Shown one piece after another: positions 1-35,575 of a stretch of DNA of 35,575 nucleotides. Within the stretch, counting starts at the first letter, position 1; every line of letters begins with the position of its first letter. The position numbers were made by a program, and so were the translations under genes. Source of the DNA: a virus (taxonomy: Duplodnaviria; Heunggongvirae; Uroviricota; Caudoviricetes); the IMG/VR virus record IMGVR_UViG_2579779007_000007; one strand, given 5' to 3'. Below the pieces are notes generated by a model, which was given only the letters and a program-made list of their open reading frames with translations, did no database searches and had not been told where the DNA came from.

Positions 1-21
1 ATGCGAGAGACAGTCGAAATT

Positions 22-351
22 ATGCGTTATCCCGTCACTCTTACACCCGCGCCGGAAGGCGGTTATATGGTTTCTTTTGTGGATATCCCTGAAGCGTTGA
101 CCCAGGGCGAAACTGTCGCTGAAGCGATGGAAGCGGCAAAAGATGCTTTACTGACCGCATTTGATTTTTATTTTGAAGATAACGAGCTTATCCCGTTACC
201 TTCGCCATTAAATAGTCATGATCACTTTATTGAAGTACCTTTGAGCGTCGCCTCTAAGGTATTGCTGTTAAATGCTTTTTTACAGTCAGAAATCACTCAG
301 CAAGAGTTAGCCAGGCGAATTGGCAACCCGAATGTAGTCAACCCAAAATAA
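22..351 (+). CDS. hicB: HicB-family antitoxin, N-terminal domain only; ORF ends after 8 unrelated codons, apparently disrupted by the AT-rich element
   Basis: Translation MRYPVTLTPAPEGGYMVSFVDIPEALTQGETVAEAMEAAKDALL... matches the enterobacterial HicB N-domain as recalled. Start of an Xre-like HTH (ITQQELARRIG) is cut off near nt 331. GC drops from about 50% to about 35% after nt 340. Confidence 0.6.
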   Translation: MRYPVTLTPAPEGGYMVSFVDIPEALTQGETVAEAMEAAKDALLTAFDFYFEDNELIPLPSPLNSHDHFIEVPLSVASKVLLLNAFLQSEITQQELARRIGNPNVVNPK

Positions 352-583
352 CTAAAAATTTTGCAATAAAAAGCCCCATCTCAAGGACAAGGCTTAGAAA
401 TCAACTAATTAACATAGTTTCCAGATCAAAGGGGTTATAATGAAATCCATAAAAGGTGATCTGTTAGCTGGGTGCTGTATATCTAAAATGTTACTTAATT
501 AATATCGTTCTGGTGGTTAGCTTTCATCGCATCCCACCATTTTTGAGTAATCTTCATGCTATTGAATTGCATCATTTCACCTC

Positions 584-1363
584 TTACTCTGCGTCTACCA
601 TGTCACATGCAAATTGAGTGTGTTTATATTCAGAATCAAATTTTGGTTCAATTACTTCAAGACGCATGTCACCTTTTTTGCTTACCCAGATGTTATAAGT
701 GTTAACACGTCCAATAGCATCCTGTTTGGATTTACCTTCCATTGCGTTTGGATTCTCTTTAGATGGCTTGAGACTTGATTTATAAACATCATACTTGTCG
801 GAATACACAAAAGATACAGGAACATCGTCTACCATTTTGATCTTAAGTTTACCGCCGTTATTATCAAAAGTTTTGTTTCCGTAGAGTTTATCTTTTACAG
901 CTTCTGTTTCCTCACCATCGATAACTTTCCATGTAAATTTTGTAGTACATGCGTAAATCGCGGTAACATTCAGTTTCTTTACTTCTTCCTGTTTCGGTTG
1001 TTCTTCTTCAATCTTCGCAGAAGTCTCTGAATCGCTCTCTGACGCGGTTTCTTCTTTAGATAATACATTCATCAAGTTTTGGATTTGAGCGTTGTATACA
1101 GCCTCCAGTGGCTGAATCTGCCCGATATTGATCATTGTATCACGAACAGTTTTATTCCAGTTGCGTTGCTCTTGTTTAAGAGACGGATCAATCTTAACAG
1201 CCTTAACATATACTTCATGAAGTTTAGAATCCAGTGCGGAGATTGACTCATTAGCACAAATAAACTTCTCTGATTTGGTTATAGCCTTAGTGCAATCAAA
1301 GGACGCAGCATCAGCACCGAAAGCAGTAGCAGAAAGCACGATAGCAGCGATAATGTTTTTCAT
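584..1363 (-). CDS. secreted protein with N-terminal DUF1311 (LprI-like, lysozyme-inhibitor family) domain and an unknown C-terminal domain
   Basis: 259 aa ORF with signal peptide MKNIIAAIVLSATAFGADAA. Motif C..A.T..E..IC...L..LD..L...Y followed by QR.W...RD is typical of DUF1311. RBS AGAGG upstream. Confidence 0.5.
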   Translation of the reverse strand: MKNIIAAIVLSATAFGADAASFDCTKAITKSEKFICANESISALDSKLHEVYVKAVKIDPSLKQEQRNWNKTVRDTMINIGQIQPLEAVYNAQIQNLMNVLSKEETASESDSETSAKIEEEQPKQEEVKKLNVTAIYACTTKFTWKVIDGEETEAVKDKLYGNKTFDNNGGKLKIKMVDDVPVSFVYSDKYDVYKSSLKPSKENPNAMEGKSKQDAIGRVNTYNIWVSKKGDMRLEVIEPKFDSEYKHTQFACDMVDAE

Positions 1364-4367: not shown

Positions 4368-4550
4368 TTACCAGACCTCGGCGGTAATCTTTACTTTAAT
4401 ATCATACTTCTTTAAGAGTTTGTGGAAGGTTGATTGATCAATACCTTCACCTTTAAACCATTCACCCATCACTACATCAGGTGTCAGTTCAAAATAACGC
4501 TTTGCCATTTCTAAAACGATTTCACGAGTGAACTTAACAGGTCGTGCCAT
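4368..4550 (-). CDS. small HTH DNA-binding protein (60 aa)
   Basis: Strong RBS AGGAGGA. Pattern FTREIVLEMAKRY...GIDQSTFHKLLKKY resembles IS/phage-type HTH. Confidence 0.5.
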   Translation of the reverse strand: MARPVKFTREIVLEMAKRYFELTPDVVMGEWFKGEGIDQSTFHKLLKKYDIKVKITAEVW

Positions 4551-4907
4551 CTTATATCCTCCTAAATCTGGAATAATGATTTCTTAAAAAAGAGCTTTTC
4601 GCTCTGAACAATTCTATTTATAAAATGTTTTTCGAAAAACCCTGTAAAACCACTGTATATCCGATCAGTGGGAGCACGAATTGCTAAAGAGAAGATTAAT
4701 AATTAATCAATTCGTACATTATTCAATCGAATAAGCACTGTATGTTTAGCCAGTTCTGTATGAATTAACAGTGAGTCAGGGGATTTTCAGAAGTGAACAA
4801 TCATTTCATGCATGTATTTATACACGAAAAAATCTTGCGTATCATCAATATGGGGATTGTTTCGAAAATTTCAACCCCTACCAACGAGAAAAAGCATAAA
4901 ATAATCC

Positions 4908-4921
4908 TTGACAGTTGTCAA
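4908..4921. promoter_or_regulatory. palindrome TTGACA-gt-TGTCAA (back-to-back -35-like hexamers or operator)
   Basis: Perfect 6-bp arms. A leftward -10 candidate TATGCT lies 17 bp away on the minus strand, positioned to drive the 4550-to-2991 cassette. Confidence 0.3.
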
Positions 4922-4946
4922 TACACTTGATCTAAGCGAGAAATGA

Positions 4947-4969
4947 CTATCAAAATTTTTGTGTGAAAA
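4947..4969. repeat. direct repeat copy 1: CTATCAAAATTTTTG-TGTGAAAA
   Basis: Near-identical 22-23 bp copy at 5096..5117. A DnaA-box-like TTATCAACC sits between them at 4983..4991. Confidence 0.5.
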
Positions 4970-5095
4970 TGGCGGATAACGATTATCAACCTTTATAACC
5001 TATTATAGCACGGCGACCTTTTGATAATTCTTTTTAAATCATGCATTTACGGCGGTTTTTGGTGATTTTCTGGTTAAATAATATACAAGAATTTT

Positions 5096-5117
5096 CTATC
5101 AAAATTTTTGATGAAAA
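5096..5117. repeat. direct repeat copy 2: CTATCAAAATTTTTG-ATGAAAA
   Basis: See copy 1. This copy directly abuts the iteron array. Confidence 0.5.
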
Positions 5118-5118
5118 A

Positions 5119-5239
5119 CCTACACTACAAACCTACGCTTTAAAGGGATTGGCCTACACTACACTAGCCAGTAAACCTACACTATAACACCCTCAAACCT
5201 ACACTATGAAACCTACACACCTACACTAACCCTACACTT
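5119..5239. repeat. iteron array: about 8 direct copies of CCTACAC(T/G)(A/T) in about 120 bp
   Basis: Copies start at 5119, 5132 (variant), 5153, 5176, 5198, 5212, 5220 and 5231. Several spacings are 21-23 bp. Preceded by an AT-rich tract, inside a 1.27-kb stretch with no ORF of 60 aa or more. Confidence 0.7.
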
Positions 5240-5584
5240 CAATCTCATAAGTGTATGATCTTGAAAGACATTTCACCCCACAGACCATAGAATATAAAAT
5301 TCGAACTAACGTTCTCCTTTTTGCTCGTTTTCTCTCACTACGTTCAAGAAAGATCTCGCAAAAAGAATACGGCGTAGCCGTGCGCGAAGCGCCCATCAAC
5401 ACCTTCTAAGACCTGCAAGCAGGATTCGAAAGGGATTGGATAGTTCGCTTCGCTCACGTTCACGCCTACGGCGTTCACTCGCTTTTGAAAGGATTTTCTT
5501 AGAAAGGGATTTAATACTAGTTACTAACTGATTCTAGTAAACGAACGAAGTGAGTAACAATCACTTTCTAGAAAGGTATTGGTT

Positions 5585-5613
5585 ATCCCTTCGGGATTGC
5601 AACCTTCGGTTGC
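5585..5613 (+). other. two tandem GC-stem hairpins with TTC(G) loops (candidate structured RNA element)
   Basis: ATCCC-ttc-GGGAT immediately followed by GCAACC-ttc-GGTTGC. No clean T-run follows. Confidence 0.35.
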
Positions 5614-5817
5614 TAAATTGCTTCCTGATTATTATTTCTCCAAAAGAAAGATTCTTATATTCTAAAGATACTTCTTCGTTTTGATGATGATTTAATCAAA
5701 CCATGAAGGAGGGCTTTAGCCCGACTGAATACAATCACCTTTCATAATAACAAGAATTTTCTCTTTATAAATAATAGTGAACTTACTTGATTCACTTTCT
5801 TTTAGAGGATTTCCACT

Positions 5818-6285
5818 ATGAACCATAAAATGACTACCACTACTCCTTTTATCCTTCTGGGTCTGGATTCTGATAGCTTCCACAATGACAAGTTAATGAA
5901 GATGTTCCGTGAACGTGGTTATAACATCCTTTTCAACTCTGATGAATCCCATTTCTCTAGTGCATGGTATGCGTTTTACCGTAATAAGAAGCCGACCATT
6001 GTAGTTAACTGCTTCACCGATGAAGAACGCTTAAAGTACCAGGATCTACCAGCAATTATTGTCCGTGATGATCTGCCGTTTCAAGTCCGTTCCGGTGACA
6101 TTGATCTGGGTAGCTTCGTTACTGTCTATGAACTGGATGAAGCAATGTTTAACTACGGCAAAGAAACCGCTCAGGAAGCCCCAGAAGAAGATGAACAAGA
6201 CGAAGATGACGACGACTACGCACCAATCTGTTTTTCTTCTCAGAATGGCTTCTACGGTTACGACGAAGGCTTAGATATGCTGTAA
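5818..6285 (+). CDS. hypothetical acidic protein (155 aa)
   Basis: RBS AGAGGA. N-terminal alpha/beta-like segment (PFILLGLDSDSF...), then a strongly acidic stretch EEDEQDEDDDDY. Confidence 0.55.
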   Translation: MNHKMTTTTPFILLGLDSDSFHNDKLMKMFRERGYNILFNSDESHFSSAWYAFYRNKKPTIVVNCFTDEERLKYQDLPAIIVRDDLPFQVRSGDIDLGSFVTVYELDEAMFNYGKETAQEAPEEDEQDEDDDDYAPICFSSQNGFYGYDEGLDML

Positions 6286-7540: not shown

Positions 7541-7798
7541 TCAAATTCCTGTTGCTTCTACCATTTCACCATCAACCTGAACAAAGAATTTCAAATCAAC
7601 TTTATGAAGGGATTTGTATAGCTGGGCTATGGATAAGCCATGCTCATTTAATACCCGCTCTTTGTTCTCTTTACCTTTCGGTGCTTGATAGTACGCTTTT
7701 ACAATCGCTGCCAGTTGTTCACGATTAAAACGGGCAGGGCGACCGCGAGTAGCTTTAGTAGTCATAGTCATTTTCTCCAAATTAAAGTGAATGTTCAC
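7541..7798 (-). CDS. small DNA-binding protein (85 aa), HTH-like
   Basis: TRGRPARFNREQLAAIVKAYY...GLSIAQLYKSL pattern. Starts 2 nt after the stop of the upstream 201-aa gene. Confidence 0.5.
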   Translation of the reverse strand: MNIHFNLEKMTMTTKATRGRPARFNREQLAAIVKAYYQAPKGKENKERVLNEHGLSIAQLYKSLHKVDLKFFVQVDGEMVEATGI

Positions 7799-7800
7799 CT

Positions 7801-8406
7801 TTATTTAGAGGACTTACATTTTATCGGAAAAAGTTCTCCATCGTCAACCGACATAAAGAACTCTGCCTTAATCCCGTACTTCTTCAACCGTGAATAATAT
7901 GTACCCCGACTAATATCAACCTTGCGCAGCACTTCGAAGAACTCTTTAGGATTCCTGTAATAGTGGCTATATCGCACGTTAGCGAGTTCTACAAACAATT
8001 CCCTTGTATCACCATAGCCTTTCTTGAAAGCCACGTTACGATAGCGTGTAATGGCATGATTCAATCTCTTCTGTTTAAGCACTTCCCTGATCGGCTTCCA
8101 CTGCAACCGATAGATAGGACCGTCATCAATGCGATAATAACGCTTGATATCAAAATCAAACCAATCTCGGACTCTCCGAAACTCTGTATGTGATGTTCTA
8201 TGCTTCTTAAAGAAGTTGTGAACGTCTCTATAGCCATTATCACGGTAAAATTCTATTAAAATCTCTTTCGCTTCCTCACGGCTAAACCCAGATGTTGTGT
8301 AATCGGTCTTTAAGTGCTTATGTTTTACTGGCAAACGATATTCATGATCGGTACAACAAGACAAGGCTAATTCTACTTCATCTCTTTGTTGCTGATTAAT
8401 TAGCAT
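7801..8406 (-). CDS. hypothetical basic protein (201 aa) with C-terminal HTH-like segment
   Basis: Rich in R/K/Y. C-terminal ISRGTYYSRLKKYG is HTH-like. Divergent from the large terminase gene. Confidence 0.55.
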   Translation of the reverse strand: MLINQQQRDEVELALSCCTDHEYRLPVKHKHLKTDYTTSGFSREEAKEILIEFYRDNGYRDVHNFFKKHRTSHTEFRRVRDWFDFDIKRYYRIDDGPIYRLQWKPIREVLKQKRLNHAITRYRNVAFKKGYGDTRELFVELANVRYSHYYRNPKEFFEVLRKVDISRGTYYSRLKKYGIKAEFFMSVDDGELFPIKCKSSK

Positions 8407-16364: not shown

Positions 16365-19300
16365 ATGCAATCAATCCAATTTAAACGCACACAAACGGCT
16401 GGTAAAAAGCCGACGCCGGAACAATTATCACAGGGTGAGATCGCCTTACAACTGGCGGACCATGTGATTTACACCAAAGACAAAAATAATAACGTAGTCC
16501 AAATTAGTGTTTCTCCAGAAAAACACGCTGAACTTAACACTAAAGTAGACAATAACAAAACTAGCACTGACCGTGTTATTGCTTCCAACAAACAAGAGGC
16601 CGCTAATAATCTGGCTAGTGCTAAAGCTGAACTGAATCAGACTATTACCACGAAAGATACAGCGACCAATAAGCGCATTGATGCTACCAACACCACTGTT
16701 AGTAACTTAACCCAGACAGTTACGGCAAATAAAACCGATGCCGACACTAAGATCAATAACCTTACGGGGACCGTATCTGCGAATAAGACCGCAATTGAAA
16801 GAACCGTTGCCGCAAACAAATCTGATGCAGATAGCAAACATGCAGCTTTAACGAAAACGGTCACTGACAATAACACCGCGATTAACAACAAGGTTAATAC
16901 CACTAACACCAACGTTAGCAACTTAACTAAAACTGTTACTGCAAATAAAACCGATGCAGATAACAAAATTTCTAGCTTAACTAGCGCGGTTGCAGCTAAC
17001 AAGACAGCGATCGAAAAGACTGTTTCCGACAATAAGAAAGACGCGGATACTAAGATTACCAATCTTACTGGCACTGTTAATAGCAACCATACCGCAATTA
17101 ACAACAAGGTAGACCAGAATAAATCTTCTACTGATGCCGCAATTGCAGCCGCTAACAAACGAATTGATGGTATTGAAGGTAGCAATGATGCTCTTTACAT
17201 CAAGAAGAATACCAATACTAAGCATGGTGGGTATCTGTTAAGCAAGACAGCTAACTATCTGGAAGACCAGACATCACGAGATCTTAACTACTTTGGTGCT
17301 TTCCGTACCAATGGTCAAGATGGACTCATGGATCTAACTCTTAACGTTCCTCACTCTTCCGGTAAAGCGCACGGTCGCGGATTTACTTTCCGTTATGCGT
17401 CTGGTGGATCTCGTGTTGAAACCTATGGTTTTGATAGAGAAGGACAGAAGAACTTTAGCTATAAGATGTATCACGAAGGTGATAAACCGACTCCTGCTGA
17501 AATTGGCGCATATACCAAAGGCGAAATTGATAAGATGTTTATTAAAAATGTCACAATGTCTGTTCCTTCTGGTAGTGAATCCCGTGCTTATTTCAAGATT
17601 GCTACGGCTACGATCCCACAAAATGGTCGTATGGTAATGCTTCGTATCTTCGGTGGTAATGGTTATAACGTTAACTCCTATGATCAGGTTGATTTCCTTG
17701 AAATTGTTATCCGTAGTGGTAACGATAGACCTAAAGGTGTTAGTGTTGCTGCATATCGTCGAAATGCTCTTAACGTTCATCAAGTATTTGCGGTTAATAC
17801 TTCCGGTGATAACTACGACATTTACGTTAACTACGGTCGTTATACTGATAACGTTATTGTCGAATATGGTAAGACTAGCGGTGTTTCACTGACTGTTCAT
17901 GACACCCCAGATATGACTAACGTTAAGCCGTCTACTGGTGTTACAGATGGACGTGTTATTACAATGTTCAATACCGAAAACAAGGCCGGAACGTTGATGT
18001 TTGATAATAACGGTCAGGGAACATATGATATTGTCAGTTTGAATAACGATTCAGGTACTGGTAAAAAATATCTGCGTAAATTCCGTAGTAAAGCCGCAGA
18101 AACAATCTGGCATGAAACTGTTCAAGGTAACGTATATCGTTTAGCGACTGGCACTACCGATTCTAGCGAAGTTCTACGAATCACTGGTCGCACTATGTAT
18201 ACTGGTAAAGCTGTTTTTGATGCCGGATCTAATACTATTCGTATGCAGCGACCGAATGGTCAAAGTAACTATTTGGAATATTGGGATAACCGTAACGGTG
18301 CAAATAAACGTCAAGGTTGGATCGGTTATGGAAATGCCGATACTAACGCTATGCAGATGTATAACGATAGCGGTACTAACAATATTGGCTTAGAACAAAG
18401 CGGTCAAATCTCTCTGAATACTGGATCTACTAAAGTAGTTTATACCAACGGCGAGTATGTATCTGCTAACTCAAATGCATTCCGTATGATTTACGGTAAC
18501 TATGGTGCATTCTGGCGTAATGATGGTCAAAACGTATATTTTCTGTCTACTGCCGAAAATGATAAATTTGGTGGTTGGAACGGCTATCGTCCATTCATTT
18601 ACAATCTGGGTAGCGGTAATGTTACTTTGGGTGGTGATGGTAACGAAGGTGCATTAGTCTTAGAACGTGCAAGTCGTGCAGCTCGTTTTGCTGGAAACGC
18701 TTTCATCAAAGGTCAACATTTAACACTTGATGCTGGTGCTGGACAATCCCGCGACTATTTCCGTTTTAACCATTGGGGTGATAGCAATAACGCTCGCGAC
18801 AACATTCTATATCTCGAAGACAGCAAAGGACGCCATTTCAGCACCGAACGTAATATGGCTACAGGTGCATTAAAAGCATACTTCTTAGGAGATCTTGAAG
18901 TTGCTGGTCAAATGCGATGGGGTAAGAATACCGGACAATCTAGCTTCAATATTCGTGCATGGGGTAATGATACTCGTAAACAAGTATTAGAATGCGCAGA
19001 TGAAAGCGGCTGGCATTTCTACACACAGCGTGCTGGCGGTCCTGATACTACCGCAATCGAGTTTAGCGTAAACGGTAAAATTAACGCTCCCCGACTGTCT
19101 ATTAGTCAGGATGCAACCATTCCTAAGTTTAATAGCGGTTTTGGTGTTGGTGTTGCTAACGGATTGGGTGGAAATTCTATTGTTTTAGGCGATAGTGATA
19201 CTGGATTTAAACAAAACGGTGATGGTGTCCTTGATACCTACGCTAATAACGTTAATGTTGTTCGCCATACGTCAGGCGGTGTTACATTTAACCGTCGTGT

Positions 19301-19973
19301 TGTTGTTGCTAACAAAAATGGTTTAGGTTATTCCGATATCTCTGATGTAACTCGTGACCGTGCTCCATTCCTGGTTAACATGGATAGTATTAAGGGGTCT
19401 GCTGCATATTTCCCGATCATCGCTGGTTACAGTAACTTAGGTGATGTTGGTTATCGTCAGTCCTTCGAGTTTGGTTGGACGGGTAGCGGGTCGAATAGCA
19501 CATGGCGTACTGGTATTATCCGTATGCGTGGCGATAACGCCAACGGGCAGCAAGCACGCTGGGAATTTACTATGGATGGTGATTTTACCTGCCCCCGTAA
19601 CGGTAGCTTTAACGATGTTTACATTCGCTCTGACTCCCGTTTGAAGATTAACAAGGAAGAATTACAGGACGGCGCATTAGAGAAAGTAAACTCCCTGAAA
19701 GTCTACACCTACGATAAAGTTAAATCTCTTTCAGATGACACAGTGGTTAAACGCGAAGTAGGTATTATTGCTCAGGATCTGGAAGAAGTGTTGCCGGAAG
19801 CAGTAGGTATTCAATCCACCGAAGATCCAGAACAACCGGAAGCAATTAAGACTATTTCTAACTCTGCTGTTAATGCCTTGATTATTAAAGCGATTCAGGA
19901 AATGGACGCCAAATATCAAGCTAAGATTGAAGCATTGACTAAAGAGATTGCCGAACTCAAAGCAACTAAATAA
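16365..19973 (+). CDS. long tail fibre with C-terminal S74 intramolecular-chaperone domain
   Basis: 1202 aa. Repetitive shaft, KPTPAEIGAY motif, C-terminal YIRSDSRLKINKEEL... matching the autoproteolytic chaperone domain of T5 pb1 and endosialidase-type fibres. Confidence 0.85.
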   Translation: MQSIQFKRTQTAGKKPTPEQLSQGEIALQLADHVIYTKDKNNNVVQISVSPEKHAELNTKVDNNKTSTDRVIASNKQEAANNLASAKAELNQTITTKDTATNKRIDATNTTVSNLTQTVTANKTDADTKINNLTGTVSANKTAIERTVAANKSDADSKHAALTKTVTDNNTAINNKVNTTNTNVSNLTKTVTANKTDADNKISSLTSAVAANKTAIEKTVSDNKKDADTKITNLTGTVNSNHTAINNKVDQNKSSTDAAIAAANKRIDGIEGSNDALYIKKNTNTKHGGYLLSKTANYLEDQTSRDLNYFGAFRTNGQDGLMDLTLNVPHSSGKAHGRGFTFRYASGGSRVETYGFDREGQKNFSYKMYHEGDKPTPAEIGAYTKGEIDKMFIKNVTMSVPSGSESRAYFKIATATIPQNGRMVMLRIFGGNGYNVNSYDQVDFLEIVIRSGNDRPKGVSVAAYRRNALNVHQVFAVNTSGDNYDIYVNYGRYTDNVIVEYGKTSGVSLTVHDTPDMTNVKPSTGVTDGRVITMFNTENKAGTLMFDNNGQGTYDIVSLNNDSGTGKKYLRKFRSKAAETIWHETVQGNVYRLATGTTDSSEVLRITGRTMYTGKAVFDAGSNTIRMQRPNGQSNYLEYWDNRNGANKRQGWIGYGNADTNAMQMYNDSGTNNIGLEQSGQISLNTGSTKVVYTNGEYVSANSNAFRMIYGNYGAFWRNDGQNVYFLSTAENDKFGGWNGYRPFIYNLGSGNVTLGGDGNEGALVLERASRAARFAGNAFIKGQHLTLDAGAGQSRDYFRFNHWGDSNNARDNILYLEDSKGRHFSTERNMATGALKAYFLGDLEVAGQMRWGKNTGQSSFNIRAWGNDTRKQVLECADESGWHFYTQRAGGPDTTAIEFSVNGKINAPRLSISQDATIPKFNSGFGVGVANGLGGNSIVLGDSDTGFKQNGDGVLDTYANNVNVVRHTSGGVTFNRRVVVANKNGLGYSDISDVTRDRAPFLVNMDSIKGSAAYFPIIAGYSNLGDVGYRQSFEFGWTGSGSNSTWRTGIIRMRGDNANGQQARWEFTMDGDFTCPRNGSFNDVYIRSDSRLKINKEELQDGALEKVNSLKVYTYDKVKSLSDDTVVKREVGIIAQDLEEVLPEAVGIQSTEDPEQPEAIKTISNSAVNALIIKAIQEMDAKYQAKIEALTKEIAELKATK
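16640..17170 (+). repeat. intragenic tandem repeats encoding two ~69-aa shaft repeats
   Basis: Repeated NLT.TVTANKTDAD.KI..LT..V.ANKTAIE.TV. The low-complexity repeats create the spurious antisense ORF 16637..17185. Confidence 0.6.
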
Positions 19974-19980
19974 TAAAAGT

Positions 19981-19999
19981 CGGGGGACTAGTTCCCCCG
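19981..19999 (+). other. stem-loop after the fibre gene (weak terminator candidate)
   Basis: CGGGGGA-ctagt-TCCCCCG with no clean T-run. Confidence 0.3.
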
Positions 20000-20029
20000 T
20001 AATAACAATTTTAATTAAGGGGTAATTCT

Positions 20030-20500
20030 ATGTCTCAATTTAATGATATTTTTACTGGTGGTCTGGTAAGTCTGTTCTATCACGCTGATACCACTAACAC
20101 CGCTCTCGATCACTCCGGTTACGAAGAAATTAAAGAGTGTGCTGGTTTTCCTGAAACTGGTATCGAGCGCGGTACTGTAGAAGTTAAATCCTTCTCTTCT
20201 CAGTATAACCGTAAGCTGGTAGGGAAGCTGAACGTTCCTGATCTGACTCTTACGGTGAATTACATCCCCGGGGAGAGTGTCCATGAGAAGCTCATAAAGG
20301 CTGCCGAAGACGGTACTCGAATTCAGATTAAGATTGAATACTATGTTGATGCAGCAAAACAGACTGGTATTCGCACCGCTTTCAACGGCTTCATTTCTAA
20401 AGTTGCTATGAACGGTGGCGATGAAGAAGTGGTAACTAAAGAGTTTACCTTCGCGGTGGACGGAAAGCCGATCAAACAGGAAATCTTCACTGCCGGATGA
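20030..20500 (+). CDS. major tail tube protein (putative)
   Basis: 156 aa, upstream of the chaperone and tape-measure genes. Paralogous to the N-domain of 15449..16282. Ends with TGA. Confidence 0.6.
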   Translation: MSQFNDIFTGGLVSLFYHADTTNTALDHSGYEEIKECAGFPETGIERGTVEVKSFSSQYNRKLVGKLNVPDLTLTVNYIPGESVHEKLIKAAEDGTRIQIKIEYYVDAAKQTGIRTAFNGFISKVAMNGGDEEVVTKEFTFAVDGKPIKQEIFTAG

Positions 20501-20626
20501 ACTAACGAAGAACTTCCTTTAATAGAACCGGAACCACTACCGGAACATGAAGCGGTGGTGATTCCAGAAGTAGAAGAAGTTACGGCGAAAGCCACAGCAA
20601 AACGAGGCCGCAAGGCTAAGAATTAA
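20501..20626 (+). other. in-frame 41-codon extension after the tail-tube TGA (candidate readthrough segment)
   Basis: Same frame as 20030..20500, no in-frame ATG. Encodes TNEELPLIEPEPLPEHEAVVIPEVEEVTAKATAKRGRKAKN, then TAA. Confidence 0.45.
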
Positions 20627-20631
20627 TTTTA

Positions 20632-20660
20632 AGCCCTGCCTTAATGGTGGGGCTTTTTTA
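20632..20660 (+). terminator. intrinsic terminator after the tail-tube extension
   Basis: AGCCCTGCC-ttaat-GGTGGGGCT followed by TTTTTT. Confidence 0.7.
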
Positions 20661-20674
20661 TTGGAGTAATCAAA

Positions 20675-21181
20675 ATGGCAAATGTCGTTAAAGTTCCTGG
20701 CTGGATCGGGTCATCTGCTGTATCGGTGACGGGTAAGCGATGGATGAAAGAAGCACTAACAGCTTTAAAAGTTCCGGCTCCGCGTAATATGTCGGCAATG
20801 GCTGGTCGTGGTATGGATACGGTTGTAGCTACTGCTGCATGGTCTACTTCATTGGGTAATAACTGGGGGGTAACTGCTTCAAACTATCCTGTTTCCGGTA
20901 TGCAAAGCAAAGGATCTATGGAGAACCCCGAAAACGTGGGCGTAGGGCGTCTGATTGGCGTTATCGTTGGTCAATTCAATGGCGGTACTCCTACTATGGC
21001 TGTATATCTCCAGAACGGTAGAGCGGGGAATATAACCGTTAATTTGGGTGGTGCTACTGTCACTGTTCCTTATAACAGTATGCAAAGTGGTTTTCATTAC
21101 TATTGGTTAAGCAATCCTCCGGCTGCTTTCCTCAATAACATTAAGAAGACTGGCACTAAGCAGACTTTGAAAATCTCTTAA
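20675..21181 (+). CDS. hypothetical tail-associated protein (168 aa)
   Basis: ORF with RBS GGAG, located between tail tube and chaperone genes. Confidence 0.5.
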   Translation: MANVVKVPGWIGSSAVSVTGKRWMKEALTALKVPAPRNMSAMAGRGMDTVVATAAWSTSLGNNWGVTASNYPVSGMQSKGSMENPENVGVGRLIGVIVGQFNGGTPTMAVYLQNGRAGNITVNLGGATVTVPYNSMQSGFHYYWLSNPPAAFLNNIKKTGTKQTLKIS

Positions 21182-31506: not shown

Positions 31507-31860
31507 ATGTTAAGCAAACATTTTTCTCGCAAGGAATTTAAATGTAAATGCGGAAAATGTGATTATGATACAATCGACGCTGAATTACTGGTAATTCTTG
31601 AGGATGTACGAGAGCACTTCGGTAAACCAGTGATTATTAACAGTGGCAACCGTTGCCCGACTCATAACAAGAATGTAGGCGGGGCAGCCAATAGCTATCA
31701 CGTTCGAGGCCGTGCGGCTGACATTGTTATCAAGGGTGTCTCACCTGATATTGTTCATGCTTATCTTGATGGGAAATATCCTACTCAATACGGCTTAGGA
31801 AAATATAAAACATTTACGCATATCGATTCCAGATCAAAAAAATCACGGTGGAATGGATAA
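31507..31860 (+). CDS. peptidase M15-family peptidoglycan peptidase (putative endolysin)
   Basis: 117 aa. SYHVRGRAADI and a downstream His match the M15 zinc-peptidase H..G.A.D pattern, the class that includes T5-type endolysins. Confidence 0.65.
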   Translation: MLSKHFSRKEFKCKCGKCDYDTIDAELLVILEDVREHFGKPVIINSGNRCPTHNKNVGGAANSYHVRGRAADIVIKGVSPDIVHAYLDGKYPTQYGLGKYKTFTHIDSRSKKSRWNG

Positions 31861-31892: not shown

Positions 31893-32071
31893 TAGAATAT
31901 GCTGGCGACGTTAGCTATATTTCTGACCATTTTTTCATTATAGACAAATATACCGCAGACGATAAAGTCGTTTTTGACGAAGTAGATCCGTCTCTGGTTG
32001 AAGTAATGAAAGAACCGGAAGACCTAGAGCTTGATTTAAGCCAATTATAGACTCTCTAACGCAATTAAATT

Positions 32072-32100
32072 AAAAAGGGGTACGGATGTACCCCTTAAAG
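32072..32100. terminator. bidirectional hairpin between convergent transcription units
   Basis: AAAAA-GGGGTAC-ggat-GTACCCC-TTAAAG. Confidence 0.45.
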
Positions 32101-32132
32101 CGTTTGGTTCGTTATACGGCGATTTAGGCCGC

Positions 32133-32390
32133 CTATGATTTATTTTCTTGTTCTATGAAAATCTTTCTCACCTCATCAGAATAAATGTCTAGTGATTCCT
32201 CATAACATTTTCTGTATTCATCGTAATTACTGGTGGTCTTTTGACATAGCAATTTCAATGTCTTATGTGCTCCATCAATGAAAGCATCTTCTCTATAGGT
32301 TAGCGGTCTACGCATTTCTTGGTCTACGGTTGCCAATGCCAAGCAAGAATTCATAGATAAAATCAAACCTAAAATCTTAATCATCTTCAT
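32133..32390 (-). CDS. small secreted protein (signal peptide, about 85 aa)
   Basis: MKMIKILGLILSMNSCLALA-TVDQ... Begins 4 nt after the recombinase stop on the same strand. The ORF-track start at 32405 is a TTG. Confidence 0.5.
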   Translation of the reverse strand: MKMIKILGLILSMNSCLALATVDQEMRRPLTYREDAFIDGAHKTLKLLCQKTTSNYDEYRKCYEESLDIYSDEVRKIFIEQENKS

Positions 32391-32394
32391 TAGC

Positions 32395-34074
32395 TTAAAT
32401 TCCAAATTCTTGTAATGGACCTGGTATTTCTTCTTCTGGTTTCCAGTTCTTATCTGTCAGCATGTCTAAACATGGATGCAGAACAAGCCCGTTACTCTCC
32501 AGAATCTGCCTATCATTGATAGTCTTCAAATCAACGAAGATCCGGCCTTTCCTCGGTCCTCTTGAATTTTCTATTACAACTCTCTGGGTCTTGCCATCGA
32601 TGTATTCCAGTACAAACAAGTTTTTGTACTTGTCAATCCTGCTACACCCGATCCGTTTTAGAGCTTGCTTAATCTTAAACCGGACCTTAATGCGATCCTC
32701 GTTGTAAACATCTTCTAAATCAAATTCTGCGAGCTTCTCCCAGCCTTGAGAGTCAACAGAATACATTTCCTCTTCTGCCATCTTAAGTTGATTGTAGAGT
32801 GTTTCACGCTCGCTATTGAGGGTAGTAATCTGATCGGCTAGCTCCTTCGTTGCTCCTGTCATAGCAGAAAGGGTAATCAGGTTATCAATCTTGCGTGATA
32901 TTTCATCAATCTGTACTTTCAAAGCCGGAACCGGATTAGCCTTATCTTCAGCAATCCAGATTTTATCAGCCAGCAATTGCAATACAGCTTTCTCTAATTG
33001 GTCGCCGCGAAAACTCCAGTTTGTATGCACACATTCAATACGACTAGAGCGCATTGCATCGCATGAATAACGATATTGGTTAGGCCGTCTGTTTGTTCCT
33101 TTCACCTTAACCATAGCGGAACCGCAATGTTCACATTTCAATAGACCAACACCACTAAGCAAGGGAATAGGTTTAGCTTCTTCTTTGTCTCCAAAGTTAC
33201 ATGCTCTAACACCAATGCTTTTCTTAAGGTGATAAAACTCAGCGTCATCTAGCACACGAGGATAATAATCCTTTAACTCATACTTAACGCCATCTACAGA
33301 GATTTCCTTGATACCAATCAAAGCGCGGGTATGGAACAACCTTTCAATCATTGCCCGTGACCAGTTTGAATGCCTCTTGTGACTTGCGGCTGGTGGTGGT
33401 GTGTATGTCGCGTTAAGGTGATCCAGTATCTCGGCGGTTGACCGTCCATTCCTGCGTAATTCCACAACTTCCTGAACAATAGGGAAGAAGACCGGATGAG
33501 GAAGCACATAACCAGATGTGGTATCAGTCCACCACATATTCTTTCCAATTTCCTCGATTGCAACAGCCGGATTTTGTGGATTTTCTTGATGAGCTTTAAT
33601 CTTAATCAGTGCGCTTGAGTTAGTACGATTGCGCTTAGTCTGGCTTTCCTCATTACCACGGATGAATAAAAGGATGGAGAACATCAGGTCCATCGGGTTA
33701 GCGGTAACAGTATCAAGCGAGTAGATCTTGTTATCCATGCCAGTAACAATGGTTATCCCCCTACGGATGATTGAAAGGAATAACTCCTGCGCACTGACAA
33801 TATCGGCACGGGATAAACGGTCCAAGTTTTCGATGAATAGCCAGCTACCAACAGGAACGGATCTACCTATTGCATCAAGGAAACGAGATAGCGCCCCTGT
33901 TTTGGAGTTAGCACCCTTAAACGCAGATACACCCAGATCCTGATAATCATTTACCAGTTCAAGGTCATACTTTACCGCAATCTCTCTAGCCATCCTGATT
34001 TGTCGTTCATAACTCGAACCATCATTCTGACGCATAGACGAGAAGCGAATATACGAATACAGTTTAGTTTTCAT
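32395..34074 (-). CDS. large serine recombinase (candidate integrase)
   Basis: About 560 aa. N-terminal resolvase-type motif YIRFSSMRQ, recombinase domain, zinc-ribbon cysteines (CEHCGSAM...YRYSC), C-terminal coiled coil. ATG start at 34074; the ORF track uses a TTG at 34089. Confidence 0.85.
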   Translation of the reverse strand: MKTKLYSYIRFSSMRQNDGSSYERQIRMAREIAVKYDLELVNDYQDLGVSAFKGANSKTGALSRFLDAIGRSVPVGSWLFIENLDRLSRADIVSAQELFLSIIRRGITIVTGMDNKIYSLDTVTANPMDLMFSILLFIRGNEESQTKRNRTNSSALIKIKAHQENPQNPAVAIEEIGKNMWWTDTTSGYVLPHPVFFPIVQEVVELRRNGRSTAEILDHLNATYTPPPAASHKRHSNWSRAMIERLFHTRALIGIKEISVDGVKYELKDYYPRVLDDAEFYHLKKSIGVRACNFGDKEEAKPIPLLSGVGLLKCEHCGSAMVKVKGTNRRPNQYRYSCDAMRSSRIECVHTNWSFRGDQLEKAVLQLLADKIWIAEDKANPVPALKVQIDEISRKIDNLITLSAMTGATKELADQITTLNSERETLYNQLKMAEEEMYSVDSQGWEKLAEFDLEDVYNEDRIKVRFKIKQALKRIGCSRIDKYKNLFVLEYIDGKTQRVVIENSRGPRKGRIFVDLKTINDRQILESNGLVLHPCLDMLTDKNWKPEEEIPGPLQEFGI

Positions 34075-34081
34075 ACCATTT

Positions 34082-34123
34082 CCAAACAAAAACGCCCCTA
34101 CCGCGTATTATAACGATAGGGGC
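34082..34123 (-). terminator. minus-strand terminator upstream of the recombinase
   Basis: On the minus strand: GCCCCTATCG-loop-CGGTAGGGGC followed by GUUUUUGUUUGG. The loop contains TATAAT. Confidence 0.4.
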
Positions 34124-34137
34124 TAGGTGATTAAAGA

Positions 34138-34557
34138 TTAAAGAATTTCACGGCAGCTAATCAGGGAATAAGACGTATCACCTTTTTTAACATCAAATAT
34201 AGGCGCGCCATCTACAGAATGCAGATATTTGATGTAGGATTTACCATCTTCGGAACCATAATATTCTTCTTTCTCGTTCTTATCTTCTTTCAGTTTTGGG
34301 CTTTTGATTGTTTTATCAAATACCGGATCGTTGAAAGCAAATTGACTATTATCATCATTCACTCGAACCTTTACACCGATAAAACCACGGTATTTGCCAG
34401 ACGGCGCATGATAATAACGGTCGCCATCACTCAGGTAGCGTGTATCATCTCCTTTATATTCGAAGTAGGAATTGCACACATAATAGGTATAGGTATTAGC
34501 ATTCGCAGCACCAACCAAACCCAGAGCAAGAACAACACCAGCGATAATCTTTTTCAT
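34138..34557 (-). CDS. secreted hypothetical protein (139 aa)
   Basis: Signal peptide MKKIIAGVVLALGLVGAANA. RBS AGAGGA. Confidence 0.6.
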   Translation of the reverse strand: MKKIIAGVVLALGLVGAANANTYTYYVCNSYFEYKGDDTRYLSDGDRYYHAPSGKYRGFIGVKVRVNDDNSQFAFNDPVFDKTIKSPKLKEDKNEKEEYYGSEDGKSYIKYLHSVDGAPIFDVKKGDTSYSLISCREIL

Positions 34558-34602: not shown

Positions 34603-34725
34603 TTAAAAGTTAATGCTAATAATCAGACCAAACACAACCGCACCAATCAAATCAATCCAGTTAATACACAGCGAATATTCTTTCTTGAATGTCTTAGATG
34701 AAATGCCATCATGAAATTGTTTCAT
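34603..34725 (-). CDS. possible small membrane peptide (40 aa)
   Basis: Manual translation MKQFHDGISSKTFKKEYSLCINWIDLIGAVVFGLIISINF. RBS-like GGGGTGA very close to the ATG. Confidence 0.2.
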   Translation of the reverse strand: MKQFHDGISSKTFKKEYSLCINWIDLIGAVVFGLIISINF

Positions 34726-34865: not shown

Positions 34866-35303
34866 TTAAGCGCGAACGATGGTCAGAGTATCCAGCAAAC
34901 CTTTTTCGTATAATTCGAAACACGTTTTATATTGCTCAATCTTCCAACCGTAGCGGGTGATCTTATTCAGTAGAATAATCACGGTATTCTCATCTAGGTA
35001 TTGTCCTTGCTTACCAATTACATATGACTCGCGGGATAGTCTCAGCTTACGGAAACCTTTAACACCTAATTCCTTAGCCACCGCTTTAACCTCGTTAATC
35101 TCACCTTCTGCGGCTACATATTCAGCGTCGATAATCTCAGTTGATGATCTCAGTGCTACCAGAACTAAGGCCATTGCTTCTTCTTCGGTACGAGCAACAC
35201 CAGCTTTCTCGAAAGTCATCTCACCAAATTTACGAGTCATAATATTGAACATTGTCTGTATTCCGTTTAAATCGGCGGGAATAGTACCCGCCAAATTAGA
35301 CAT
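34866..35303 (-). CDS. hypothetical protein (145 aa)
   Basis: ORF whose start overlaps the upstream stop (TAATG). Confidence 0.55.
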   Translation of the reverse strand: MSNLAGTIPADLNGIQTMFNIMTRKFGEMTFEKAGVARTEEEAMALVLVALRSSTEIIDAEYVAAEGEINEVKAVAKELGVKGFRKLRLSRESYVIGKQGQYLDENTVIILLNKITRYGWKIEQYKTCFELYEKGLLDTLTIVRA

Positions 35304-35575
35304 TACTTCTTGCTGATAAACTCTTTAGCGATAAAGTTGATTACTTCTTTCAGCTTCTTGTCTGTATCGATGCACGCTGGTAATTCTTCTTTAATATCCT
35401 GCGGCAGATACACATTGCCTTTAAAGTGGAGGAAACCATCATTACCAATCATGTAGGAGAACATCCATTCACAATCGTTATCCGCTTCCCAGAACGCCAC
35501 GGTCTCATCCCCAATCAAGGTAATGTCCATGTTGCGACGCGCTGCGTAGTTGATGATTGCTTTACCGATGTTCAT
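35303..35575 (-). CDS. hypothetical protein (at least 90 aa; may extend beyond the window edge)
   Basis: ORF reaches the window boundary. Confidence 0.45.
   Translation of the reverse strand: MNIGKAIINYAARRNMDITLIGDETVAFWEADNDCEWMFSYMIGNDGFLHFKGNVYLPQDIKEELPACIDTDKKLKEVINFIAKEFISKK

Follow-up and report, generated by a model that had tools for sequence, protein, structure and literature searches.

Large serine recombinases (LSRs) are recognized by their signature, a non-palindromic crossover of 2 bp in the middle of an attP site of about 50 bp, and several of the elements that use them reside inside genes: those of the Listeria phages phi10403S and A118 in comK, and, in B. subtilis, SPbeta in spsM via SprA and skin in sigK via SpoIVCA. 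The integrases of phiC31, Bxb1 and TP901-1 and the Listeria A118/LI integrase have the same order of domains, i.e., a catalytic domain, a recombinase domain, and a zinc ribbon with an inserted coiled coil. Here, we present an analysis of an LSR encoded in a 35,575-nucleotide stretch of caudoviricete DNA, IMG/VR record IMGVR_UViG_2579779007_000007. The whole stretch is called the window below, and coordinates refer to it unless another sequence is named. Comparison of its ends with occupied and empty sites places the LSR element in E. coli, as a prophage inserted inside hicB, and the LSR is very probably the integrase of this prophage, which fills the window.

The kind of system is well known, namely, phage serine integrases that recognize an attB within a gene. 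The LSR has the domain order of the integrases named above, its fold matches those of phage large serine integrases over its full length (att complexes and PDB 4kis), and its sites resemble theirs in that attP is an imperfect palindrome of about 50 bp, the shorter attB has less symmetry, and the central dinucleotide is non-palindromic. In contrast to these integrases, it has an enterobacterial host and an extra, conserved β-rich domain at the C-terminus (residues ~460-559); variable accessory genes separate its gene, int, from attP by about 1.5 kb, and a candidate for its recombination directionality factor (RDF) was not recognized. As in the comK, spsM and sigK elements, attB is part of a coding sequence, and joining attL to attR gives an intact gene; thus, an intragenic attB with exact gene restoration, one of the marks of active lysogeny, is found here at the level of sequence. 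Unlike those switches, the hicB prophage shows nothing that points to the other mark, regulated excision without lysis to turn the host gene on, and the antitoxin that it splits keeps its toxin-neutralizing N-domain.

LSR clusters in which close orthologues enter different target gene clusters have been described by Durrant et al. (2022; PMC10083194), who classed clusters with one to three target clusters as site-specific. The LSR family described here, with three targets (hicB, ycdX and codB) and 72-93% identity among their LSRs, fits this class. In the same paper, DUF4368 marks a multi-targeting clade; this domain was not matched in our LSR by Pfam, and, unlike that clade, in which a single orthologue uses many unrelated sites, the family has three targets, each tied to its own DNA-binding allele. 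Neither the attB, the attP, the LSR protein motif nor the accession occurred in the set of supplementary files searched for that paper, a set that may be incomplete, and literature searches in the paper library, in which hicB, ycdX or codB was combined with terms for prophages, integration sites or serine recombinases, returned no description of the element. The present analysis defines the attB, the attP and the crossover dinucleotide of an enterobacterial LSR that had not been characterised; the target-tracking domain mosaic of the LSR was likewise worked out in the present analysis and not in PMC10083194.

The prophage and its junctions in hicB

The first 326 bases of the window belong to hicB, a gene present in 5,323 of 5,426 complete E. 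coli genomes, whereas everything beyond base 326 is prophage sequence of about 41% G+C. Strain C600, with an intact hicB at 1522-1938 of its extract (L002), served as the empty-site reference, and strain CE0007a (NZ_CP119011.1) provided an occupied site with a copy near-identical to the window (4 kb compared). Against C600, the host identity on the left stops at window base 326, within codon 102 of the 138-codon hicB. In NZ_CP119011.1, the 3' fragment of hicB begins no more than 40 bp after the final phage gene of the window, ydcR comes next, and host identity resumes at the window-equivalent position 35613, i.e., 38 bp past the window end. One of two possibilities raised in the initial annotation, that the right boundary lies just outside the window, is thereby borne out. 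Comparison of attL, attR and the empty site gave a common core of TTGGCAA (window 320-326) and an inserted element of 35,293 bp. The distance from the LSR stop codon to the hicB junction at 320-326 is about 32.07 kb, in agreement with the ~32 kb estimated initially, and the second junction, attR, is only about 1.5 kb from the LSR.

Two genes, of 145 and 90 amino acids, occupy the space between int and attR (Table 1), and neither is kept in all three relatives compared; the 90-residue gene starts on the final base of the window, 38 bp short of the attR core. A tRNA or RNA-gene target was ruled out, as no tRNA was found in the window and no Rfam family matched it.

The crossover point and the attachment sites

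Within the 7-bp core, we infer that the crossover dinucleotide is AA at window 325-326, because three comparisons agree on it. A variant phage at hicB (ETEC1717, L019) has a different P' arm, and its core, AAACCTAAA, overlaps that of the window at AA only. In a sister phage located in ycdX, the left and right host identities overlap by exactly two bases, again AA. Finally, the attP reconstructed from the two junctions, predicted to be GTTATTGTGGGTACATGATATTTGGCAACCCGAATGTAGTCAACCCAAAATAAC, is an imperfect palindrome with a dyad score of 19/30 when centred on AA, as compared to 13 or less at 29 other centres; the dyad peaks likewise in the attP sites of the ycdX, L019 and codB phages. The attB is far less symmetric (8/32).

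Centring by symmetry gave CA for the codB-type site, while a second codB lysogen has TA there in its attR. The base immediately 5' of the shared AAGGC indeed differs between the two codB attR sites, which read GGCAAGG (L006, near 6895) and GGTAAGG (L018, near 5243); the K-12 codB sequence at this site is GGGTAAGG. Either the two phages have unlike central dinucleotides, or one site has mutated after integration. It is also to be noted that a GTTA..GG motif (ZD register) can be picked out that is 7 bp nearer to the centre in the B arm than in the P arm; this was seen by eye in one arm, and is not claimed.

Structure of the recombinase

The LSR open reading frame (ORF), 32395..34089 (-), has 564 codons when read from a TTG. 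However, the ATG at 34074, giving 559 amino acids, is likely the true start, since PGAP annotates it in the near-identical copy, and the N-terminus that it begins, MKTKLYSYIRFSS, is kept in all relatives. The protein matched three Pfam families above their cut-offs, namely, Resolvase (PF00239, E=2e-14), Recombinase (PF07508, E=1.5e-7) and Zn_ribbon_recom (PF13408, E=1.6e-9), as well as PHROG 95 'integrase' (E=3e-58). It carries the catalytic sequence YIRFSSMRQ, and an alignment of 39 homologues showed Y8, R10, Q16, D85, R86 and R89 to be invariant and S12 to be at least 90% conserved; the zinc-ribbon cysteines C314, C317, C338 and C348 are also invariant across the 39. In the AlphaFold model (mean pLDDT 80), the helices 382-406 and 410-450 form a long hairpin, predicted to be the coiled coil. 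These results uphold the initial description of a ~560-residue LSR with a YIRFSSMRQ catalytic region, a zinc ribbon and a coiled coil.

Foldseek comparison of this model with the PDB returned 9dxd, 9dxf, 9rah, 9y66 and 9dxh (E=6e-16 to 1.5e-13, over 560-650 alignment columns) and also 4kis (E=4e-9). The best of these, 9dxd and 9rah, are serine integrases on att DNA and cover the LSR in full length. The TM-scores stayed low (0.2-0.4), which is to be expected where flexible linkers join the domains. A search of the PDB by sequence found one catalytic domain only (E=5e-4). In the C-terminal β-rich domain, encoded by 32395-32700 (-), the segment KTINDRQILES, followed by VLHPC, is invariant in the eight relatives aligned.

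Relatives at three target genes

Relatives were surveyed in the 5,426 complete E. coli genomes, and about 60 of these contained a syntenic relative. The LSR gene adjoins a 3' fragment of hicB in about 30 of the genomes, of ycdX in 27, and of codB in at least two; two homologues, one of Salmonella (69% identical) and one of E. coli (86%), are likewise located at ycdX. The family extends to Shigella, Salmonella, E. fergusonii and Edwardsiella (59%), beyond which the identity is 40% or less. In the E. coli and Salmonella relatives inspected, the LSR and attR are about 1.5 kb apart, and the site is always within a host gene. One member of the family is a prophage remnant of 5.8 kb (NZ_OY856299.1, 2513000-2521000; L015), which contains both att sites, the LprI gene, the 85-codon ORF described below, and a shortened LSR.

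Alignment of the LSRs by target revealed a mosaic. Residues 1-153 exist as two alleles of ~79% identity, common to different targets, whereas residues 154-368 are at least 98% identical within the hicB types, 81-85% identical to those of the ycdX types, and ~61% identical to those of the codB types. Between the hicB and ycdX LSRs, 23 residues are fixed differently; none of them is in the catalytic domain, and 18 fall in 176-351. Conversely, the residues that separate the two catalytic alleles (27/27) are all in 15-140 and are independent of the target. In these alignments, the host gene used is thus shown to follow the recombinase domain and zinc ribbon (154-368) and not the catalytic domain.

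Two strains, BS74R-D and UTME-9 (accessions NZ_CP063332.1 and NZ_CP157110.1), each carry a family member in hicB and a second one in ycdX on the same chromosome, and therefore the two types of prophage can coexist; in BS74R-D, each LSR bears the residues diagnostic of its own site. Between the window type and the ycdX type, attP changes at a single base in the left arm and at three bases in the right, yet the attB sites are different, and the enzymes differ at about 22 fixed residues, all outside the catalytic domain. We tentatively suggest, at somewhat less than even odds, that the hicB-, ycdX- and codB-type integrases are a natural retargeting series, in which a subset of the diagnostic residues would set the choice of attB and leave attP recognition undisturbed. 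If true, the hicB/ycdX pair would be a compact and testable map of LSR retargeting. Serine integrases are genome-engineering tools that are hard to retarget, and nearly the same attP paired with a different attB is a useful starting point.

The recombinase as the probable integrase

The integration steps that we propose are drawn from the established mechanism of LSRs. LSR dimers would bind the imperfectly palindromic attP of ~54 bp on the circular phage genome, as well as the attB inside hicB, the crossover of which would fall at codon 102. Ser12 would then cut both sites at the central AA, the subunits would rotate, and religation would yield attL (320-326) and attR. Excision should require a directionality factor.

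A tyrosine integrase elsewhere in the element had been named at the outset as the finding that would refute the initial reading, and neither it nor an excisionase was found among 39 other ORFs scanned or in the PGAP annotation of the near-identical copy; in fact, these sources contained no second recombinase or integrase of any type. All 39 ORFs were scanned with PHROGs, the 19 at the ends of the element also with Pfam, and the 20 in the middle with PHROGs alone. The idea that the LSR is instead an accessory recombinase, either resembling the YbcK-type genes, which in lambdoid phages lie in the late region beside a separate tyrosine integrase, or controlling inversion or resolution, draws on its nearest relatives in the phage database (~30% identity), which include YbcK-type lambdoid genes, some annotated as hypothetical only; on a weak secondary match to PHROG 125 'DNA invertase' (E=2e-11); and on the three genes that separate the LSR from the att site. 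Lambdoid phages integrate by a tyrosine integrase, and the YbcK-type genes are not their integrase; unlike these genes, the LSR is the sole recombinase of its 35.3-kb element. Furthermore, YbcK-type genes and the serine recombinase of the Burkholderia phages (Bcep176 gp53/Bcep22) are the nearest entries of the phage collection, with 27-31% identity along more than 80% of the length, but are too distant for a transfer of function to the LSR. Small serine invertases such as Hin, Gin, Cin and Pin have ~190 residues, a C-terminal helix-turn-helix, and inverted sites that flank an invertible segment; the LSR, in contrast, has 559 residues and includes a recombinase domain and a zinc ribbon. When inverted repeats were sought across the whole window, no pair of the invertase type emerged; the best pairs were weak (71-90% complementary), scattered and in unrelated genes, and none convincingly brackets a segment. 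An invertible segment was thus rejected as a candidate, and the alternative role in inversion or excision control offered in the initial annotation was not sustained. Since, in addition, the insertion site co-varies with the DNA-binding segment of the LSR, and the junctions show the 2-bp crossover and palindromic attP of serine integrases, an accessory role is extremely improbable, and the accessory-recombinase, invertase and resolvase readings are largely refuted.

Several considerations nonetheless weigh against this assignment. Recombination, excision and phage production are predictions from the sequence, and the element is without a recognisable repressor, replication initiator or directionality factor, such that it may be defective or may use unknown functions. 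Some relatives are clearly decayed, as seen in insertion sequence (IS) insertions, a TerL deletion, and the 5.8-kb remnant. The LSR is only ~13-16% identical to any LSR of solved structure, and inferences at the level of residues are therefore weak. Lastly, the tracking of targets rests on ~13 sequences from four or five independent lineages, and shared recombination history may contribute to it. Some of these points would also fit an LSR that was once an integrase, of which the present copy is an inactive relic in a defective, vertically inherited prophage: the repressor, replication and excision functions have no recognisable match, several relatives are visibly degraded, and no closely related isolated phage was found in the phage collection (a 42-bp match only by megablast, and 43% identity for the best terminase). 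The LSR frame, however, is intact, with its catalytic and zinc residues present, and the packaging, head, tail and lysis module is complete. Strains from cattle, pig, chicken and human have copies that are at least 99.6% identical across the 4-kb right end, and the lysogen backgrounds differ, with four ydcR protein alleles and different serotypes; near-identity in such varied settings argues for recent horizontal spread. We thus consider a relic improbable, and an integrase of the resident prophage remains by far the preferred assignment of the LSR.

A probable int transcription unit

The (+) strand late operon ends with an endolysin (31507-31860) and a 65-codon ORF that ends at 32050; the LSR, encoded on the minus strand, indeed converges upon it, as initially described. 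At this convergence lies an intrinsic terminator (fold of -22.3 kcal/mol, z=-3.4), kept 40-45 nt past the LSR stop in seven relatives, including Salmonella. A second hairpin is found upstream of the LSR start codon (-21.7 kcal/mol, z=-4.3), the loop of which holds a perfect TATAAT (34112-34107). This hairpin is kept in 7/8 relatives, including Salmonella, whatever the upstream gene, and the loop is always TATAAT. It appears to insulate int from upstream transcription and may carry the -10 element of int. Overall, the conservation of both terminators suggests that int is its own transcription unit between them. In the relatives, the slot between the endolysin and the LSR stop (L004, L011, L012, L013, L016, L017) contains a GIY-YIG nuclease, a UvsW-like helicase, a UvsY-like protein, and genes of 337-390 amino acids; it is a hotspot for accessory genes.

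In the window, the LSR stop codon (TAA, 32397-32395) is followed by GCTA and then by an ATG at 32390. An ORF of 85 codons therefore starts 4 nt after the stop, exactly as reported initially, and its N-terminus, MKMIKILGLILSMNSCLALA/TV, reads by inspection as a Sec signal peptide with an n-h-c layout and an AXA site. The coupling to the LSR that had been proposed on this basis holds only as adjacency in the window, and is not conserved: the ORF fills 258 of the 262 bases of a sublineage-specific insertion. The other loci in an alignment of eight read TAAGC/GGCCTAAATCG after the LSR stop, so that, in seven relatives, the stop leads directly into GCGGCCTAAATCG and the conserved terminator. In the relatives with 94% identity, homology starts at the LSR stop, and full comparison with three relatives showed that none of them has the ORF. 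By these comparisons, the secreted 85-residue product would be recently inserted cargo on the int transcript, outside the recombination system, and its adjacency to the LSR accidental.

Whether this ORF is a gene was also considered. PGAP leaves it unannotated in CP119011, a point against its being real that would suit a chance ORF in an inserted non-coding fragment, as would its weak Shine-Dalgarno sequence, the lack of any Pfam or PHROG match, and the restriction of its homologues to one tight cluster (47 members). Gene callers in other assemblies, on the other hand, do annotate it, and the near-complete occupancy of the insertion, the n-h-c signal peptide with its AXA site, and the two cysteines of the mature part also speak for a gene. 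In shuffles of the insertion, an ORF of at least 80 codons arose in only 0.17%; it is probably, therefore, a real accessory gene, and a chance origin is rather unlikely. Kinship to the LprI-family protein of the same prophage, prompted by the C-x12-C spacing of both, was rejected, as BLASTP gave E=6.8, and Pfam at E<=10 gave only DUF7938 (E=0.1).

The directionality factor

The initial remark that no directionality factor is evident was corroborated by the Pfam and PHROG scans of the ORFs of the element, which recognized no RDF candidate. The genes between attR and int vary among the three relatives compared, and are poor candidates for this reason. The best-conserved small early proteins are the 60-residue product of 4368-4550 (-), which is 80-100% identical in relatives and the most conserved of all, and the 155-residue product of 5818-6285; these two are offered as leads only. 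The 60-residue protein and two others encoded in the early region, of 74 (7541-7765 (-)) and 201 (7801-8406 (-)) residues, have a similar motif at the C-terminus (LLKKYDIKV, LHKVDLKFFVQVDG and LKKYGIKAEFFMSVDDG, respectively). None of the three matched Pfam or PHROG, and the shared motif suggests that they may be one family of small regulators.

Effect on hicB

The insertion deprives HicB, a 138-residue protein, of its last 37 residues, and PGAP accordingly labels the remainder as 'missing C-terminus'. In E. coli HicB, the N-terminal domain neutralises HicA, whereas the C-terminal helix-turn-helix and the β-strand that follows it bind the operator and dimerise the protein (reviewed in PMC11594946). 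By inference from these domain roles, the HicB fragment should retain neutralisation of the toxin and have lost repression of the operon. About 0.5% of complete E. coli genomes have a prophage that truncates the HicB antitoxin in this manner. The toxin gene, hicA, is intact in the lysogens CE0007a and ETEC1717, and is a frameshifted pseudogene in the strain with the 5.8-kb remnant (NZ_OY856299.1). Since attL and attR rebuild the intact hicB of the empty site exactly, excision would restore the gene without a scar. That an antitoxin gene is the one split here is probably incidental, because sister phages split the unrelated genes ycdX and codB. On a weaker reading, the split, which leaves hicA together with a HicB fragment without its DNA-binding and dimerisation end, may alter the regulation of HicAB in lysogens, at least one of which has a decaying hicA.

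Other features of the prophage

The coordinates of the features discussed are collected in Table 1.

Table 1. Features of the hicB prophage and domains of its recombinase.
Feature	Position	Strand	Description
hicB' (truncated)	22..351	+	HicB 1-101 plus 8 phage residues (NPNVVNPK), then stop
attL	294..353	.	Host B arm, core 320-326, phage P' arm 327-353
Intrinsic terminator of int unit	32065..32096	-	9-bp stem and T-run, at convergence with late operon
Sublineage-specific 262-bp insertion	32131..32392	-	Between LSR stop and terminator; alignment of 8 loci
85-aa ORF, probable orphan accessory gene	32133..32390	-	Predicted signal peptide, two Cys in mature part
Large serine recombinase (LSR), very probable prophage integrase	32395..34074	-	559 aa; Pfam, PHROG, alignment, AlphaFold, Foldseek
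LSR catalytic domain	residues ~1-153		Ser12, Arg10, Asp85, Arg86, Arg89
LSR recombinase domain	residues ~198-286		
LSR zinc ribbon	residues ~310-368		
LSR coiled coil	residues ~382-450		
LSR C-terminal β-rich domain	residues ~460-559		
Upstream hairpin	34094..34123	-	11-bp stem and T-run, ends 20 nt before LSR start codon
139-aa secreted protein	34138..34557	-	Just upstream of int; variable, replaced by other genes in some relatives
145-aa gene (PHROG 14908) and 90-aa gene (PHROG 6147)	34866..35575	-	Between int and attR

In the 308-bp spacer upstream of the 139-residue gene, a 40-codon ORF (34603-34725 (-)) encodes a product with a hydrophobic C-terminus. It is 95% conserved in the three relatives compared, although the flanking genes vary, and it is unannotated by PGAP in CP119011 and in most relatives inspected. 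At the other end of the prophage, about 1.27 kb (4551-5817) is without an annotated gene and contains iteron-like direct repeats, namely, AAACCTACACTA, in four to six copies at 5116-5242, and TTAGAAAGGGATT, in three copies at 5425-5585; this may be an origin or a control region. A secreted protein of the LprI (lysozyme-inhibitor) family, encoded by 584-1363 (-), adjoins attL and is absent from the three relatives compared; its gene is a lineage-specific accessory gene. Lastly, positions 16365-21181 (+) encode a T4-like distal subunit of the long tail fibre (1202 residues, PHROG 1699) and a gp38-like adhesin (PHROG 1121), which flank the tail-tube gene in a tail module of the siphovirus type, and both of which diverge strongly between relatives.

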